A stretch of DNA of 64,000 nucleotides from an uncultured Gammaproteobacteria bacterium. Lineage in GTDB: Bacteria > Pseudomonadota > Gammaproteobacteria > UBA9214. The translations under genes were made by a program, and so were the position numbers. Location: assembly GCA_963827755.1 (NCBI GenBank), contig CAWHCQ010000037.1:1-64000 (forward strand). The letters are read 5' to 3'. Below, one piece after another: positions 733 through 12,284 of this stretch. Position 1 is the stretch's first letter; the number at the start of each line of letters is the position of its first letter. The notes beneath the pieces were generated by a model. It had not been told where the DNA came from. It saw nothing but the letters and a program-made list of their open reading frames with translations, and searched no databases.

Positions 733-1486
733 TTATGCCGTTTTATGGGGTCTTGCTTGAAAAACAGACTGAGCGATTCGTACACTTTGTGGATAGGTGT
801 CTCTGGAGTAAACCCGGTTTTTGGAAAATACTTCACTGAGGACGGCAAGAAACTCGGCAGGGGCGGTTGCAGCATATCGGTCCAGCCCTGGTTTTGGATT
901 ATGCTGAAAATCCTCAAAGGCGTAGGTAAAGACTTTTGACCAGTTTTTTGAATTGATGTCAGTGTGCATGGGCGGGAAGCCGTCTGCTGCGCCATTTTGC
1001 ATATCCAGCTTGTGGACAAATTCGTGGATGACGACGTTGTGTCCATCTCTTATCCCGGCGTGTTCAGACATGATTCCAGGACAGGACGACCGGGCCACGT
1101 TGCCATGCCTCGCCGCTGAGTTCACTCCTGGTGTTATGCGCCACGCCGAATTCATCCATTACTGTTCTTTCCGGTGCAAAGCTCGCCGGGTATACGATGA
1201 TGGACGACCATCCCGAATACCAGTCGATCCCGAGATGCAAAATGGGCAGGCAGGCCTGTAGTGCGATGAGCAAGGTCATTTCCTCGCTAACTTCAAGGCC
1301 TTGGGCGCCAAAGAATTCCTTTTCATGGAGAAATAGTATCGCAAGATCCTGCAGGGTTTTTATTTCTTCACCAGACAGGTAGTCAAGTAGCGATAACTGT
1401 GCAACCGCTTTGTCCCAGTACACGGGGGATATTGTGTTGCGTGCAATGATGCGTTGCTGTCGCCATTTTTTCAGAATTTTAAACAT
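733..1486 (-). CDS. Zinc-dependent peptidase, M90/MtfA family, frameshifted near 1070
   Basis: N-half has IALQACLPILHLGIDWY..GEAWQRGPVVLSW; C-half has DGHNVVIHEFVHKLDM (HExxH) and YAATAPAEFLAVLSEVF. Confidence 0.8.
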
Positions 1487-1836: not shown

Positions 1837-2166
1837 ATGGTGGAAATTAGAGAATACCTGGATAGAGATGGACATAGCCCATATGCCAGGTGGTTTGATC
1901 GACTGAACGCAGCCGCTGCTGTGAAGGTCGTCACAGCGATACACCGAATGGAGCAGGGTAATTTTTCTAATGTTAAAGGTGTTGGCGCCGGGGTATATGA
2001 GTATCGGATTAGTTTTGGTCCCGGCTATCGGATTTACTTTGGTAAGGATGGAGACAAGTTGGTCATATTACTCGCTGGTGGTACCAAGAAGCGCCAGGAT
2101 GCCGACATCAAGGCAGCGCAAGCGTATTGGCAAGACTACAAGCGGCGAAAACGGCAAGAGGTGTAA
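1837..2166 (+). CDS. Type II toxin, RelE/ParE family (addiction module killer type)
   Basis: GNFSNVKGVGAGVYEYRISFGPGYRIYFGKDGDKLVILLAGGTKKRQ signature. Confidence 0.9.
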   Translation: MVEIREYLDRDGHSPYARWFDRLNAAAAVKVVTAIHRMEQGNFSNVKGVGAGVYEYRISFGPGYRIYFGKDGDKLVILLAGGTKKRQDADIKAAQAYWQDYKRRKRQEV

Positions 2167-2168
2167 TC

Positions 2169-2492
2169 ATGGCATTAACTAAAGATTTTAAAGAAACAAT
2201 TCAGGCACGCGCACAACGCGATTCTGTGTTTCGCAAAGCCTTGCTTCAAGAAGGTACTGAATGTTTGCTCGCGGGTGATATTGACACCGGTAAAGCGGTC
2301 CTGCGCGATTATATTAATGCGACGATTGGATTTGAGGAATTATCGGAGGTTTTTGGTAAATCTAGCAAAAGCCTTATGCGTATGTTCAGCCCGAAGGGGA
2401 ATCCACAAGCCAGTAATTTGCTCGGAGTCATCAGTTACCTACAGGAGAAGGAGGGCGTTCATCTGGAAGTAAAGGCGCGGAAGGTTGCGTAA
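2169..2492 (+). CDS. Antitoxin / HTH regulator (addiction module antidote type)
   Basis: MALTKDFKETIQARAQRD..LRDYINATIGFEELS..KSLMRMFSPKGNP; starts 2 bp after the toxin stop. Confidence 0.85.
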   Translation: MALTKDFKETIQARAQRDSVFRKALLQEGTECLLAGDIDTGKAVLRDYINATIGFEELSEVFGKSSKSLMRMFSPKGNPQASNLLGVISYLQEKEGVHLEVKARKVA

Positions 2493-2671
2493 CGAGATGT
2501 GCCAATTTTTTTGTTGATGTAGATCGGTACATGGTTTCGGTGTCGATCATCCGTAATGAGTCCGTATCACAGCATCTGTCAACTGCCGGTTTTCATCCTG
2601 GCGAAGAGTAGTTAGGGTTGGCTCAGAAGGGGTCGGTTTAGCCAGTCGTCAGCTCCGGAATCCGGACACAA

Positions 2672-2696
2672 AAATGTTGCCCAAATGTTGCCCAAA
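2672..2696. repeat. Tandem 11-bp direct repeat, possible integrase arm-type site
   Basis: AAATGTTGCCC twice in tandem, about 130 bp from the tmRNA 3' fragment. Confidence 0.5.
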
Positions 2697-2827
2697 AAGT
2701 AATGATTTCAGGGCAAGTTGAATATAGAAGTTTGCAGAAATTCGTGCTTTTTCAGACTTTTAGCGTGCCGCCCTGGTGGGCGGCCGCGGGTTAAAATGTT
2801 TAAGAAAAACCAATAAAAACAACAAAT

Positions 2828-2850
2828 TGGTGGAGGCGGCGGGAATCGAA
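2828..2850 (-). repeat. ssrA: Intronless tmRNA-type 3' end fragment (att-like duplication)
   Basis: Minus strand TTCGATTCCCGCCGCCTCCACCA = T-loop, T-stem 3' strand, acceptor 3' strand with U70, and ACCA; no T-stem 5' strand upstream. Confidence 0.85.
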
Positions 2851-2915
2851 TAGAGGATTATCCGAGCTACATTAACTCCGTCTTGAGTTCCTTATAGTTT
2901 GAGCATTTATTAGAT

Positions 2916-3350
2916 TCAGGGTTTTATTTCCAGGACGCTGTTTTCAAACTGTGTGCGTAATGCCTGCTTTTCGGGAGTGTATTTCCCGTTACGTGGTGTC
3001 AGTTTAATGTAATCACGCAGGATCAGTGCGGCTCGCCTGGATTTATAGCCCCTTAGATTGGCGAATACCTGTTCCAGCAGGTCCATGGCCTGTCGGTTGT
3101 AGATAGCATAGACATAGCTTGGGGAGTGGTGGGCTTTTGCTATACGTTTGTTGGTGATCTTGCCGACACCGGTTGTGCTCAGGACGAATTCCAGCAGATT
3201 TTTCTCGGTACTGCTGATGCTGATGGCGAGCTGGCGGTTCTCGTTGCGGTGTTTACGGGTAAGGGTGATAGTGCCCTCACCATCTATCAGGCCGGCGATA
3301 TACGCGGCATCTACCGGTGTGAGAACATTTACAGGTCGAGCAGTGGCCAT
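2916..3350 (-). CDS. LAGLIDADG homing endonuclease, single motif, free-standing
   Basis: 144 aa with AAYIAGLIDGEGTI motif, followed by LAISISSTEKNLLEFV..GVGKI as in the LAGLIDADG fold. Confidence 0.9.
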   Translation of the reverse strand: MATARPVNVLTPVDAAYIAGLIDGEGTITLTRKHRNENRQLAISISSTEKNLLEFVLSTTGVGKITNKRIAKAHHSPSYVYAIYNRQAMDLLEQVFANLRGYKSRRAALILRDYIKLTPRNGKYTPEKQALRTQFENSVLEIKP

Positions 3351-3365
3351 TCACAATTGTACTAG

Positions 3366-3393
3366 AAAACGGCCCTGGCTGATGCCAGGGCCG
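3366..3393 (-). terminator. Intrinsic terminator after the tmRNA-type 3' exon
   Basis: Minus strand CGGCCCTGGC-ATCA-GCCAGGGCCG followed by TTTT, 5 nt after CCA. Confidence 0.8.
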
Positions 3394-3398
3394 GTAGT

Positions 3399-3415
3399 TG
3401 GTGGAGGCGGCGGGA
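3399..3415 (-). ncRNA. ssrA: tmRNA-type 3' exon
   Basis: TCCCGCCGCCTCCACCA directly after the intron terminal G; identical to 2828-2844. Confidence 0.8.
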
Positions 3416-3687
3416 CAGCTGGTTCCATACCTTTCGATATGGGCTGGACTATTCCTTCACCTGCCGTAGTCAGCAGGGGAGAGCGTGTTGTAGGTTATTG
3501 CCCTCTGGCATCAACCTACCCTAGTACTCCATGGGGAACTTCCCGTTAGGAGCCTATGAGTCTCTAGCCGGCTTACTGGTTTCCCATTCACCGGACGGCG
3601 TTGGCATAGGACCCCTGTCCCTTAGCGTTCACCGTATGAGCTCTCTTTTTCCAACAGGGATCACTCCCTGTGGCGACCATTGTGTTA
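3416..3687 (-). ncRNA. Group I intron, 272 nt, IA-like
   Basis: Minus strand: IGS GGUCG pairs with upstream CGAU; P2 ACAGGGA/UCCCUGU; P3 GAGAGC/GCUCUC; P AUACGGUGAAC; Q AACGCCGUCC; R UAGAGACUCA; extra helices between P7 and P3'; P8 CCUGC/GCAGG; S AAGGAAUAGUCC; P9 with GAAA loop; terminal G at 3416. Confidence 0.88.
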
Positions 3688-3722
3688 ATCGACTCATGCA
3701 GGGCTTGAAAAGGTAATTGATT

Positions 3723-4607
3723 ATGATGCGAATAGCACTGTTTCTGGCGACCAATGCGGCCATCCTGGTCCTGATCAGCGTGGTCTTTCAGGCCCTTGGG
3801 ATCGAGGGTGTTCTGGCCGAAAACGGGGTGGACCTGAACCTGCAGGCCCTGCTGGTGATGTCCGCCGTCATCGGTTTCAGCGGTTCCTTTATCTCGCTGG
3901 CCATGTCCAAGTTCCTGGCCAAGCGGTCCATGGGTGTCAGGCTGATCGAACAGCCGGCCAGTGAAGCCGAGCGCTGGCTGGTGGACACGGTGAAGCGCCA
4001 GGCGCAGATGGCGCGTATCGGCATGCCGGAGGTCGGTATCTTCGACTCGCCGCAGCCGAATGCCTTTGCGACCGGCATGCGGCGCAACAATGCACTGGTT
4101 GCCGTGAGCACCGGCCTGCTGCAGCGCATGAACAGTGATGAGGTCGAGGCGGTGCTGGCCCACGAGATCACCCATGTCAGCAACGGCGACATGGTGACGA
4201 TGGGTTTGATACAGGGCGTGGTGAATACCTTTGTGATCTTCCTTTCGCGCATCATCGGTCATGTCGTTGACCGGGTCGTGTTCAAGACCCAGCGCGGTTA
4301 CGGTCCGGCCTATTACATCACCTCGATTGTCGCCCAGGTGTTTCTGTCCTTCCTCGCGTCAATGATCGTGATGTGGTTTTCACGCCGGCGTGAATTCCGC
4401 GCCGATGCCGGGGGCGCCTCGCTGGCCGGGCGTGAAAAGATGATCAGTGCCCTGCAGGCCCTGCAGCGGGAAAGTAAGCCGCATGATCTGCCGGGTGAAT
4501 TTGCGGCCTTTGGGATTTCCGGTGGACTGGGCAGCGGCATCAAGAAGCTGTTTATGACCCATCCGCCGCTGGAAGTGCGCATTGCAGCCCTGCGGGCGGC
4601 TGCCTGA
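3723..4607 (+). CDS. htpX: Protease HtpX
   Basis: [15 protein letters not shown]; PNAFATG; LAHEITH (HExxH); [12 protein letters not shown]; THPPL. Confidence 0.95.
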
Positions 4608-4617
4608 GTACAGCCTG

Positions 4618-4824
4618 TCAGGGCAGGGGGCCGGTCTTTAACGCGGGTTCGTCGGGGAACAGTTCACGCAGGTCGTCATGGGAGAGCGCTTCGCCTTTTT
4701 CCTCATAGCGCTGCCAGAGCTTCTCCCGGCGGTCATCGTCAAAGTAGAATCCGGCCGGCAGGATGCAGACCGGTTCCCGCCGGTGGTCGGTGATGACCCT
4801 GGGTTCTTTCAGTTTTCCGGACAT
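4618..4824 (-). CDS. Small hypothetical protein
   Basis: 68-aa ORF filling the gap between htpX and the CRP-family gene. Confidence 0.55.
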   Translation of the reverse strand: MSGKLKEPRVITDHRREPVCILPAGFYFDDDRREKLWQRYEEKGEALSHDDLRELFPDEPALKTGPLP

Positions 4825-4954
4825 GCGGGCGGTGATGTATATTTTGGGCTACCTTGGTAAGATACAAGACAATCCGGACAGTGCAATACCCTGACCTGCG
4901 CTTTTTGTGCTACCGGTTCACCTCAGAAATGGAATTTACAGAAAAGGCATAATA

Positions 4955-5596
4955 ATGCTGGAAAATATTCCCCTGTTTTCCGGGCTCTCGCAACAGGCAC
5001 TGGCCAAAATCGAGCAGCACAGTTCTGTCAAGTCCTGCAAGAAGCATACGATCGTTATTAACCAGGACGATGAAACCTACACCCTGTATGTCATCCTCTC
5101 GGGCAGCGTTAAGGTCTATATCAGCGGTGAAGACGGGCGTGAAGTGGTGTTGAATCACCAGACGGCCGGCGACTACTTTGGCGATCTCGCAATGATTGAC
5201 AAGCAGCCGCGCGTGGCCTCGGTGATGACGACCGAGCCGTCGAAATTCATGCTTATCTCGCGTGAGGATTTTATGAGCTGTCTTTCGGAAAATCCGGACA
5301 TTGCAATCAACCTTATCAGGCCGATGACCAGTCGTATGAGGATGCTGGCAAAAAATGTCAGCAGCCTGGCGTTGCTCGATGTCTATGGACGTGTTGCGCG
5401 GACACTGCTTGATCAGTCGGAGAAGCAGGGCGATGTTCTGGTTACCGAGAAGCTGACGCAGCAGGAGATTGCCGACATGGTTGGTGCATCGCGTGCCATG
5501 GTCAGTCGTATCCTTAAAGACCTGAAAGAGGGTGGCTATATCTCGATTGAGAAGAAGCACATTACCATCCATCAAAAACTGCCTGCCCACTGGTAA
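4955..5596 (+). CDS. CRP/FNR-family transcriptional regulator
   Basis: cNMP domain (LYVILSGSVKV, GDYFGDLAMID..PRVASV) and HTH LTQQEIADMVGASRAMVSRILK. Confidence 0.92.
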   Translation: MLENIPLFSGLSQQALAKIEQHSSVKSCKKHTIVINQDDETYTLYVILSGSVKVYISGEDGREVVLNHQTAGDYFGDLAMIDKQPRVASVMTTEPSKFMLISREDFMSCLSENPDIAINLIRPMTSRMRMLAKNVSSLALLDVYGRVARTLLDQSEKQGDVLVTEKLTQQEIADMVGASRAMVSRILKDLKEGGYISIEKKHITIHQKLPAHW

Positions 5597-5664
5597 TACC
5601 CGACGCTACAGGTTCCGGCTGTGCTGTCAGTCCTCGACAGAAAATACCACCGTTTTACTCATCG

Positions 5665-6252
5665 TCAAGGGAACGGAAAGGCCCGCATGGGTTTTGCCAT
5701 GTCGTTCACGTTCCCGGACATGCGGCCGACTATCCTGTTCATGTCCGTGAACTGGTTATTCAGTACCTGCATGCTGCCGGTCATGTTTGCAACGCTGTTG
5801 GTCATATTCCCCAGACTGATATTCATCTGGTTCAGCTGGTCAACCATGGTGTGCATGTCCGAACTCAGGTTGCCCAGGTTCGAGTCCATGCTGCCTACCG
5901 ACTGGCTCAGGGCAGGCATTACCGTGATGTTTTCATTGAGTCTGTCGAGGGTGGTCTGCATGCGGGGCATGGTCTGTGCAACCACGACGAAGTTTTTATC
6001 CATGGTGTCCATGTATCCCGACATGTCATCCATGTGCTCGGTGATCGCGGAAAAGTCCTTGGCGAGAATGAATACCAGGTAGAACAATGCCAGGCCCAGC
6101 GCCAGCATGCCGACCATTCCGAAACGGATGATTTGAGTGGTGCGCTTGCCGATGCGAATGCTGAGTTGTTCCCTGTGGTACATACTCTCGTTGAATTCGC
6201 GCATGGCGCTTTCAATGATTTCTGCCACTTCTCTCGTATTATTATTTTCCAT
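5665..6252 (-). CDS. Membrane-anchored Met/Asn-rich coiled-coil protein
   Basis: One TM segment (FGMVGMLALGLALFYLVFIL) then a long heptad-like repeat; AGGA upstream of the start. Confidence 0.75.
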   Translation of the reverse strand: MENNNTREVAEIIESAMREFNESMYHREQLSIRIGKRTTQIIRFGMVGMLALGLALFYLVFILAKDFSAITEHMDDMSGYMDTMDKNFVVVAQTMPRMQTTLDRLNENITVMPALSQSVGSMDSNLGNLSSDMHTMVDQLNQMNISLGNMTNSVANMTGSMQVLNNQFTDMNRIVGRMSGNVNDMAKPMRAFPFP

Positions 6253-11804: not shown

Positions 11805-12284
11805 TCAGCGCCCGCGCAGGGTCCTTTGCTTTTCCCGGGCCCAGTCATGCTCTTTCAGCGAGGCCCTTTTGTCATGGGTCTGCTTGCCACGTGCAAGCGC
11901 AATTTCGAGTTTGGCCCGCCCGTGCTTCCAGTACAGGGCCAGCGGCACGATCGTATAGCCCTTGCGCTCCACGGCGCCAATCAGTTTGTCCAGTTCACGC
12001 CGGTGCAGCAACAGGCGGCGGGTGCGTGTCGGCTCGGGCTGTATGTGGGTAGAGGCACTCTTGAGCGGTGCAATGTGCACCCCGTGCAGCCAGGCCTGGT
12101 GATCCTTGATCAGCACATAGCCTTCAGTCAGTTGCACGTGGCTCTCGCGCAGGCTTTTCACTTCCCAGCCCTGCAGGGACAGGCCGGCCTCGAAGCGGTC
12201 CTCGATGAAAAAGTCATGGCGTGCTTTTTTGTTCAGCGCGATGGTGCTGGAGTTGCGCCCGCTGGCGGATTTCTTTTTTCCCAT
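11805..12284 (-). CDS. smpB: SsrA-binding protein SmpB
   Basis: [32 protein letters not shown]; [11 protein letters not shown]; [10 protein letters not shown]. Confidence 0.97.

Follow-up and report, generated by a model that had tools for sequence, protein, structure and literature searches.

According to passages of a 2025 survey, transfer-messenger RNA (tmRNA) genes occur in three forms, one of which carries a group I intron in the T-loop (PMC11915505). The same passages report 883 unique intron-form tmRNAs from 21 phyla, with the intron at four subsites and mostly at position 7, as well as endonuclease genes in 36 of the 883 introns, located after P9 or in P7.1 and counted only inside introns (PMC11915505). 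The main-text passages name no gammaproteobacterial carrier, and the taxon table, which is supplementary, may already list some (PMC11915505). The intron of Clostridium botulinum is 287 nt long and self-splicing and was used with a CGAU substrate oligonucleotide, as stated in the sections consulted (PMC2729099). For phages, sections of a paper on collaborative homing describe introns that lack an open reading frame (ORF) and have free-standing endonucleases as neighbours (PMC3984707). The locus analyzed here lies on contig CAWHCQ010000037.1 of an uncultured Gammaproteobacteria bacterium, in a stretch of 64,000 nt (hereafter the window), and comprises a putative 272-nt group I intron, a tmRNA 3′ end and a LAGLIDADG homing endonuclease gene (Table 1). 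With a probability of about 85%, the intron belongs to the described class, sits between T-loop nucleotides 6 and 7 (position 7) and heads a larger inserted cassette, which is orphaned in the contig as assembled.

When 37 genomes of the genus were searched with window positions 2851-3700, one other carrier emerged, G048 (G-numbers denote genomes, L-numbers loci and X-numbers public sequencing runs of this analysis). Its locus contains, in order, htpX, a spacer, a complete tmRNA body, the intron, the 3′ exon, a hairpin and the start of an ORF at the contig end. The tmRNA body scores 174.8 bits with RF00023, with the alignment breaking off in the T-loop, and ARAGORN reported no tmRNA there, as expected for a split gene. 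The junctions of G048 read ...GCGGGTTCGAT, then a 272-nt intron about 91% identical to that of the window, then TCCCGCCGCCTCCACCA. A search of species-representative genomes with the endonuclease protein gave 20 loci, 18 of which have, about 50-110 nt ahead of the ORF match, the tmRNA 3′ exon after CTG. Of these 18, 17 have GCGGGTTCGAT separated from TCCCGCCGCCTCCACCA by 251-345 nt; the remaining one (L039) is cut by a contig end. Removal of the intron from G048 and the 17 other loci, joining GCGGGTTCGAT to TCCCGC..., rebuilds a 7-nt T-loop and the tmRNA T-stem. The boundaries in all of them are those that the original prediction had drawn for the window (3416-3687), which proved exact, and the T-loop site after ...CGAU is, as it had proposed, that of the C. 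botulinum intron.

The fold was scored on an alignment of 19 introns, each extended by 6 nt into the 5′ exon and 3 nt into the 3′ exon, using a structure drawn on the window copy with 68 pairs in 14 helices (P1, P2, P3, P4, P5, P5a, P6, P6a, P7, P7.1, P7.2, P8, P9.0 and P9). Standard pairs fill 96.4% of 1289 cells, compared with a shuffle mean of 76.7% and with 31-42% when the 3′ partners are slid. The pairings P1, P2, P3, P4, P6, P7, P8, P9 and P9.0, which had been built by eye in the original prediction, are thereby borne out. Changes on both sides occur at 37 of the 68 pairs across the 19 introns, many of them shared rather than independent events as the alignment consists of two deep clades, and the observed covariation score was reached by none of 500 shuffles. 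These double changes are found in P3, P5, P5a, P6, P7.1 (4 of 4 pairs), P7.2 (6 of 7 pairs), P8 and P9, and P3 and P7 cross. P4 varies on one side only, and P7 and J8/7 (GAAGGAAUAGUCC) are invariant and hence uninformative on covariation. The weakest helices are P6a (78.9% paired) and P8 (81.4%), in part through an alignment effect of variable loops.

The splice-site features noted from the single copy hold throughout the alignment. All 19 introns have U-G at the 5′ splice site and end in G; the P1 pair next to the splice-site U-G covaries (U-G in 14, C-G in 5), and both P9.0 pairs are formed in 100% of cells. L2 and L9 are GNRA loops. P7.1 and P7.2, which covary, fill about 80 nt between P7 and P3′, and this extension fits subgroup IA, the assignment made earlier for the window copy. 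A P10 pairing with the 3′ exon was not found by eye. On this sequence evidence, 3687-3416 of the minus strand is a group I intron with a predicted catalytic-type fold. Contigs of runs X2 and X3 join 3464 to 3546/3548, omitting 81-83 nt of the P7.1-P7.2 region; these joints, with flanks below 30 nt, are weak and were unused as evidence, and may mark related introns without the P7.1-P7.2 extension.

In a scan of 341 nt of the window, the Rfam family RF00028 (Intron_gpI) was the top match and the sole family listed there, with 28.7 bits, an E value of 1.3e-5 and model positions 1-253 aligned to window positions 3425-3697. It was also the top match in 341-nt scans of G048 (18.6 bits) and Thioalkalivibrio sulfidiphilus (33.4 bits). 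Sections of a preprint state that the seeds of the Intron_gpI model include no bacterial sequence, and a 20-bit threshold was used there (bioRxiv 10.1101/2020.01.27.920355).

Circular RNA from a related intron appears in public data. Contigs were compared from four sediment runs, three of DNA and one, X15, of RNA. This metatranscriptome holds one 298-nt contig (depth 17.9) that reads 3592-3687 and then directly 3419-3621, with ends that overlap by 30 nt, the overlap that a closed circle would leave in a 31-word graph. The RNA behind this contig is thus circular (or head-to-tail), is about 268 nt long and comprises intron nucleotides 1-269, and the 3687-3419 joint is absent from the contigs of the three DNA runs. 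Circles are a known by-product of group I ribozymes, and this contig is the one indirect sign of guanosine- and Mg-dependent self-splicing in the data.

The intron is not confined to this genus. Named carriers include Thioalkalivibrio sulfidiphilus ALJ17, T. denitrificans ALJD and Parahaliea mediterranea, and carriers among metagenome-assembled genomes (MAGs) are labelled Thiohalophilus, Sedimenticola, Acidiferrobacterales, Chromatiales and Thiohalobacterales, with one labelled Anaerolineae. Most of the 17 public loci with an intact tmRNA are labelled Gammaproteobacteria, the cultured Thioalkalivibrio and Parahaliea included. In an even draw of 400 scored genomes across the class, a query of intron plus exon matched 22 (the source genome of the window, G000, included), from 20 of 320 genera. 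The T-loop intron is thus already present in public data for Gammaproteobacteria, and the window copy is not a first; the novelty implied when no gammaproteobacterial example was known does not survive these counts or the 883 intron-form tmRNAs in the passages of PMC11915505.

Three sets of loci stand apart from this distribution. The Anaerolineae-labelled contig (L037) carries a tmRNA of gammaproteobacterial type, the intron and the endonuclease gene, which suggests misbinning or inter-phylum transfer. L042 and L044 (Halalkalibacter, Bacillota) hold endonuclease homologues at 48-50% identity, in two segments in L044, with no tmRNA end and no tmRNA-type T-loop near the homologue; in L042, one match with 2 mismatches to the 12-nt J8/7-P7 word lies about 290 nt upstream of the endonuclease gene. 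Genome G229 has two contigs (L054 and L068), each with the 3′ part of the intron, the 3′ exon and a full-length endonuclease gene, which may reflect a duplication, a second tmRNA locus or the binning of two strains together.

The window comes from G000, a MAG of 52 contigs and 2.85 Mb that is 91.8% complete. On the minus strand its locus reads ...GAGTCGAT, then 272 nt (3687 to 3416, last base G), then TCCCGCCGCCTCCACCA (3415-3399). The intron starts with UAACAC and finishes with CAGCUG, and the 5′ side in the window reads ...CATGAGTCGAT. The 17-nt 3′ exon equals the 3′ end of seven tmRNAs of the same genus that end in ...GCGGGTTCGATTCCCGCCGCCTCCACCA, and it is identical in 17 of the 18 homologous loci, with one mismatch in L040. 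Hairpins equivalent to the one in the window follow the CCA end in the homologous loci. The whole MAG contains only two tmRNA-like ends, at 3415-3399 and 2850-2828.

Table 1. Coordinates of the intron, its predicted helices, the surrounding cassette and related genes in the window.
Feature	Position	Strand	Description
Group I intron	3416..3687	-	272 nt; U1 at 3687, terminal G at 3416
tmRNA 5′ exon remnant TCGAT	3688..3692	-	T-loop nucleotides 2-6; still gives the CGAU strand of P1
tmRNA 3′ exon, 17 nt	3399..3415	-	T-loop nucleotide 7, T-stem, acceptor strand, ACCA
Intrinsic-terminator-like hairpin and T run	3370..3393	-	10 pairs (9 G-C); follows the CCA end directly
LAGLIDADG homing endonuclease gene, 144 amino acids	2916..3350	-	Pfam matches; outside the intron and outside the tmRNA gene
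Cassette tail, 65 nt	2851..2915	-	Between endonuclease stop codon and displaced tmRNA end; no homology to L017
Displaced original tmRNA 3′ end, 23 nt (TTCGATTCCCGCCGCCTCCACCA)	2828..2850	-	Begins at T-loop nucleotide 1
Original tmRNA downstream flank	2639..2827	-	72% identical to L017 205-390
htpX leader (about 30 nt) and htpX (ATG at 3723)	3693..4607	+	Retained in the window
smpB (tmRNA protein partner)	11814..12242	-	163-amino-acid open frame, no stops; 198.8 bits
P1	3691-3686 with 3679-3674	-	Intron helix
P2	3671-3654	-	GUGA loop
P3	3645-3640 with 3484-3479	-	Intron helix
P4-P6	3634-3568	-	Intron helices
P7	3562-3557 with 3451-3447	-	Intron helix
P7.1	3552-3527	-	Intron helix
P7.2	3519-3490	-	Intron helix
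P8	3477-3460	-	Intron helix
P9.0	3445-3444 with 3418-3417	-	Intron helix
P9	3442-3425	-	GAAA loop

The context of the window locus was established from relatives, 25 of 31 of which have a tmRNA above the cut-off. The 12 tmRNAs compared include 8 of the same genus, and 7 of these 8 share the ending given above, L021 differing in the T-stem. The tmRNA gene is divergent from and adjoins htpX in all six loci where htpX is in reach, with a spacer of about 150-160 nt. Window positions 2639-2850 are homologous, without a break, to L017 205-413, a segment made up of the downstream flank of the tmRNA gene and the final 23 nt of the tmRNA itself, and window positions 3689-4836 are 90.6% identical to the htpX leader and gene of L017. 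Since the flank lies on one side and htpX on the other, the window locus is the ancestral tmRNA site, with 838 nt (2851-3688) standing in place of the 363-nt tmRNA body and 128 nt of spacer of L017. The match to the copy at 2828 that had been noticed at the outset is right in both junction strings; that copy is not an intronless gene, being the displaced last 23 nt of the tmRNA with their original flank.

As assembled, the window locus no longer encodes a tmRNA. Compared with the relatives, about 490 nt are gone, namely the tmRNA body with its promoter and most of the spacer towards htpX. The gap starts some 30 nt before the htpX start codon and reaches T-loop nucleotide 1 or 2. The assembled deletion takes out the tmRNA promoter and body and probably the htpX promoter. 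The tmRNA-type RNA originally proposed here is therefore reduced to a 5-nt 5′ exon (TCGAT, 3692-3688) that adjoins the start of htpX, with body and promoter absent from contig and MAG. Neither ARAGORN nor Rfam detected a tmRNA in the window; in the whole MAG, ARAGORN found none, the best RF00023 matches are tRNA-sized (at most 32.7 bits), and blastn with the tmRNA bodies of relatives found none, an absence that is weak evidence in a MAG only about 92% complete. A search of the minus strand from 2600 to 3900 for promoter-like sites, a weak test, gave none. The window copy of the intron is thus an orphan as assembled, with no visible promoter and no functional 5′ exon, and a remnant of an intron-form tmRNA gene rather than a member of that form. 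A chance overlap of TCGAT with the htpX leader (L017 has GTCGAC there) was considered and rejected: the X2 and X3 contigs, which match with 0 mismatches, have GTAA before ACTCATG, and the TCGA of an X1 contig continues straight into the T-stem, which identifies TCGAT as a genuine remnant of the T-loop. Among the relatives, partial tmRNA matches (model positions about 46-319) at G013:C432:1807-2085, G015:C217:2673-2852 and G019:C33:27-188, in genomes that lack or also have a full tmRNA, could be split or broken genes, and G004 and G009 of the same genus, with no tmRNA at all, could hold further ones.

The endonuclease gene, which was missed in the first reading of the sequence, lies beyond the 17-nt 3′ exon and the terminator-like hairpin. 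Its product matches the Pfam families LAGLIDADG_3 (PF14528; 30 bits, cut-off 22.5) and LAGLIDADG_1 (PF00961; 25.1 bits, cut-off 23.1), has no NCBIfam match, and weakly matches I-MsoI and I-CreI-type enzymes. It has a single motif, AAYIAGLIDGEGT, of which ..GLIDGEG.. is kept across the homologues, with an acidic residue ending the motif. Going by its family, the enzyme would act as a homodimer on a near-palindromic site, and the T-arm DNA is an inverted repeat that would suit such an enzyme. Of the 21 other genomes in the class sample that carry the intron, 15 have downstream traces of the endonuclease gene (8 full-length copies, 1 cut by a contig end and 6 broken or partial), and none was found within about 1-1.5 kb downstream in the remaining 6. 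Several of the 20 loci found with the endonuclease protein are frameshifted. This mixture of intact, decaying and lost genes is the pattern that a homing cycle predicts. The literature, judged by titles and abstracts and by passages of PMC11915505, yielded no paper on an endonuclease gene downstream of a tmRNA gene.

Displaced tmRNA ends follow the endonuclease gene in G000 and L036, where they begin at T-loop nucleotide 1, and in L053 and L058, two loci of one genus, where they begin 3 nt earlier; the displaced end is shortened in L037 and perhaps degenerate in L032. In three separate lineages, then, the displaced ends begin at or within 3 nt of T-loop nucleotide 1, and the cassette-side junction sequences are unrelated among G000, L036 and L053/L058. 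These ends may be recipient ends left at the endonuclease cut and joined without homology where the donor downstream flank differed, and where donor and recipient flanks matched, no duplicate end would have been left. L035 has, at 5229-5700 and about 2.3 kb downstream of the first set, a second, decayed set of tmRNA-end fragment, hairpin and endonuclease gene, a copy that is 49% identical with gaps. A joint from 2850 to 3396/3398 in the run contigs, with sides below 30 nt, was not counted as evidence.

A mechanism can be proposed from these features. In intact relatives, the precursor consists of the tmRNA body ending in ...GCGGGUUCGAU, the intron and UCCCGCCGCCUCCACCA. CGAU pairs with GUCG in P1 to give the U-G at the splice site, P9.0 (AG with CU) positions the terminal G, and two transesterifications would rebuild the T-loop, with ligated exons reading ...GGGUUCGAUUCCCGCC... 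We infer such splicing from the fold together with the self-splicing reported for the C. botulinum member. The inserted cassette comprises the intron, a new 17-nt 3′ exon, the terminator, the free-standing single-motif LAGLIDADG gene and a short tail, and its insertion displaced the original last 23 nt of the tmRNA downstream. The endonuclease is predicted to cut intron-less tmRNA genes in the T-arm, after which repair from a cassette-bearing copy would bring in intron and endonuclease gene jointly, as in collaborative (trans) homing, and the presence of the intron would make the carrier allele immune. Spread by collaborative homing is likely.

Several results weigh against reading the element as an intron of the described class at the head of a mobile cassette. 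The covariance-model search proposed in the original prediction gave the RF00028 match, and all three scores (28.7, 18.6 and 33.4 bits) fall short of the family gathering score of 50 bits; moreover, RF00028 was not matched in a 12-kb window scan (E up to 1), in a whole-window scan at the gathering score or in an 802-nt scan of G048. The junction of the X15 circle lies at a G three nucleotides before the terminal G with intron nucleotide 1 kept, which the usual routes to full-length or 5′-shortened circles do not predict, and the circle comes from a relative (11 mismatches), as a single contig in a single run. No spliced tmRNA read was seen. The target and cut site of the endonuclease are deduced only from the start points of the displaced tmRNA ends. 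Finally, it counts against a real deletion at the window locus that position 3692 is not spanned, in the arrangement of the MAG, by any contig of the four runs.

The last point bears on the reality of the joint itself. It may be an assembly artefact, in which the organism has an intact, G048-like intron-bearing tmRNA gene and the contig misjoins the T-loop to the htpX leader, an explanation we place just short of even odds. On both sides of the joint, contigs with 0-1 mismatches continue into normal sequence: X1 contig record 6 covers 3546-3692 with 1 mismatch and then reads ACCCGCGTCCGCAAG..., which is tmRNA T-stem; an X2 contig matching from 3681 also runs into the T-stem; and X2 and X3 contigs cover 3692-3766 and 3692-3772 with 0 mismatches and then, leftwards, enter a htpX-tmRNA spacer of normal type. 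Furthermore, smpB is intact on the same contig, a real deletion would also take the htpX promoter region, conserved tmRNA in co-occurring relatives would be expected to tangle assembly graphs, and a frameshifted MtfA-like gene nearby may hint at sequence errors in the contig. Set against this, the source sample may not be among the runs: for window positions 2700-4000 the best word share of any public run is 0.45, so that none holds half or more of the words, and in the contigs of the four runs 2700-2787 is uncovered and intron cover is patchy in parts. (The small word shares in runs X8-X20 were unused for habitat.) The joint has no N, repeat or shared word that could explain a false join; its two sides share at most one base, and short-word assemblers do not normally join such sequences. 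Nor is tmRNA loss necessarily lethal, as the genome has an ArfB gene (159.9 bits, cut-off 100) with which the loss could be tolerated; ArfA was not found in the assembly, which is about 92% complete. Between a real, recent deletion and misassembly the odds are roughly even. The deletion endpoint is where displaced copies begin, which makes it attractive to suppose that the DNA may have been broken at the endonuclease site, resected and then repaired by end joining. The fullest account would combine a gammaproteobacterial T-loop intron that travels as a composite cassette with an extra-genic LAGLIDADG gene, displaced ends that mark a cut at the T-stem/T-loop, and a window that records a break repaired by deletion, with loss of the tmRNA and the htpX promoter and survival through ArfB; as a whole this combination is tentative, and would be expected to fail more often than to hold.

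Other explanations change the nature of the element rather than the state of the locus. The complete T-loop and 3′ end after the endonuclease gene in G000, L036, L053 and L058, and the few tmRNA introns with endonuclease genes after P9 mentioned in passages of PMC11915505, would suit a long intron of about 837 nt that encloses the endonuclease gene, with the true 3′ splice site before the distal tmRNA end (2850/2851) and the proximal 17-nt exon as a decoy. This is very improbable, as the base preceding the distal TCCCGCC is T and not G, and the product would duplicate TTCGAT. The distal copy is absent from 12 of the 18 endonuclease-linked loci and present in 4; of the remaining loci, L035 has it about 2.3 kb off beside the second decayed endonuclease copy, and L043 is cut at a contig end. 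By contrast, CTG followed by TCCCGCC..CCA and a hairpin stands upstream of the gene in 18 of 18 loci, and all 19 aligned introns retain P9.0 with the proximal CUG. It is harder still to credit that the 272 nt are no ribozyme at all and represent island or attachment-site debris left between direct tmRNA-end repeats by an integrase-type element. Passages of PMC11915505 describe tmRNA genes as frequent sites of island integration, two direct tmRNA-end repeats are present, and a Gp49/HigB-like toxin-antitoxin pair lies nearby. However, no integrase ORF is listed between the repeats, the full group I fold shows strong covariation and an RF00028 match, and the element lies within an otherwise intact tmRNA in G048 and 17 other loci. 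A tmRNA in pieces, with the 5′ exon and the 5′ half of the intron encoded elsewhere and trans-spliced to the window locus, would account for an intact smpB where no tmRNA gene was found, and is equally hard to believe: the window intron is complete from P1 to the terminal G rather than half an intron, and neither blastn nor the covariance model detected a tmRNA body in the 2.85-Mb assembly, a weak point given its completeness of about 92%. A permuted (two-piece) tmRNA was also considered and rejected, given a terminator and a protein gene after the CCA end and no RF04321 match in the window.

Three further features lie on the far side of the displaced end. The tmRNA downstream flank contains, at about 2672-2693, a tandem repeat of AAATGTTGCCC that is also present in L017 (about 235-260) and is possibly a protein-binding site. 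Just past this flank, at 1837-2492 (plus strand), a Gp49/HigB-like killer ORF (Pfam PF05973) precedes a short ORF without a Pfam match, possibly the antidote, a pair that is typical mobile-DNA cargo near tmRNA genes. The MtfA-like (DgsA anti-repressor) gene at 733-1486 (minus strand) is split over two overlapping frames, with profile positions 5-133 in 1486-1064 and 141-246 in 1155-733, and is either a frameshifted pseudogene or a contig sequence error.

The main value of the analysis is a correction, in that a tmRNA with a T-loop intron is an established gene form and fairly common in the class. That the gene is split, or lost here, accounts for the failure of ARAGORN and Rfam to report a tmRNA in such genomes. 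With an endonuclease gene outside the tmRNA gene, a published count made inside introns alone may understate the number of mobile tmRNA introns, and the displaced 3′ ends predict a cut site that can be tested. Should the deletion of the 5′ exon be real, the organism would be a natural tmRNA-less gammaproteobacterium with an intact smpB. If the composite cassette is what it appears to be, it would constitute a chromosomal, stable-RNA version of collaborative homing, and the window would show the cost of the system.

Among known introns, those of subgroup IA such as that of phage T4 td have P7.1 and P7.2 between P7 and P3′ and GNRA loops on P2 and P9. The window intron shares these features and differs in having no evident P10. 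With the intron-form tmRNA genes it shares the type of host gene, T-loop position 7, a 5′ exon that ends in CGAU, a U at -1 paired with G in P1 and a terminal G, and its 272 nt compare with a mean of 293 nt for the founding set in the published passages. Unlike those genes as described, it has a gammaproteobacterial host, an endonuclease gene beyond the 3′ exon and a missing 5′ exon. Genomic islands that integrases insert at tmRNA 3′ ends, as described in passages of PMC11915505, likewise leave a displaced partial tmRNA 3′ end downstream of the inserted DNA, whereas the window insert has no integrase, is only 838 nt long, has its junction inside the T-loop and lies beside an endonuclease gene and a ribozyme. 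With collaborative homing in phages, the window locus shares an ORF-less intron, an endonuclease gene that immediately flanks the interrupted gene, and a putative endonuclease target at the region of intron insertion, from which co-inheritance would be expected. It differs in that it lies on a bacterial chromosome and in a stable-RNA gene rather than a phage protein gene, and that the enzyme is of the LAGLIDADG family. Moreover, the window cassette supplies a 3′ exon of its own, and the former 3′ end of the recipient persists as a displaced fragment.

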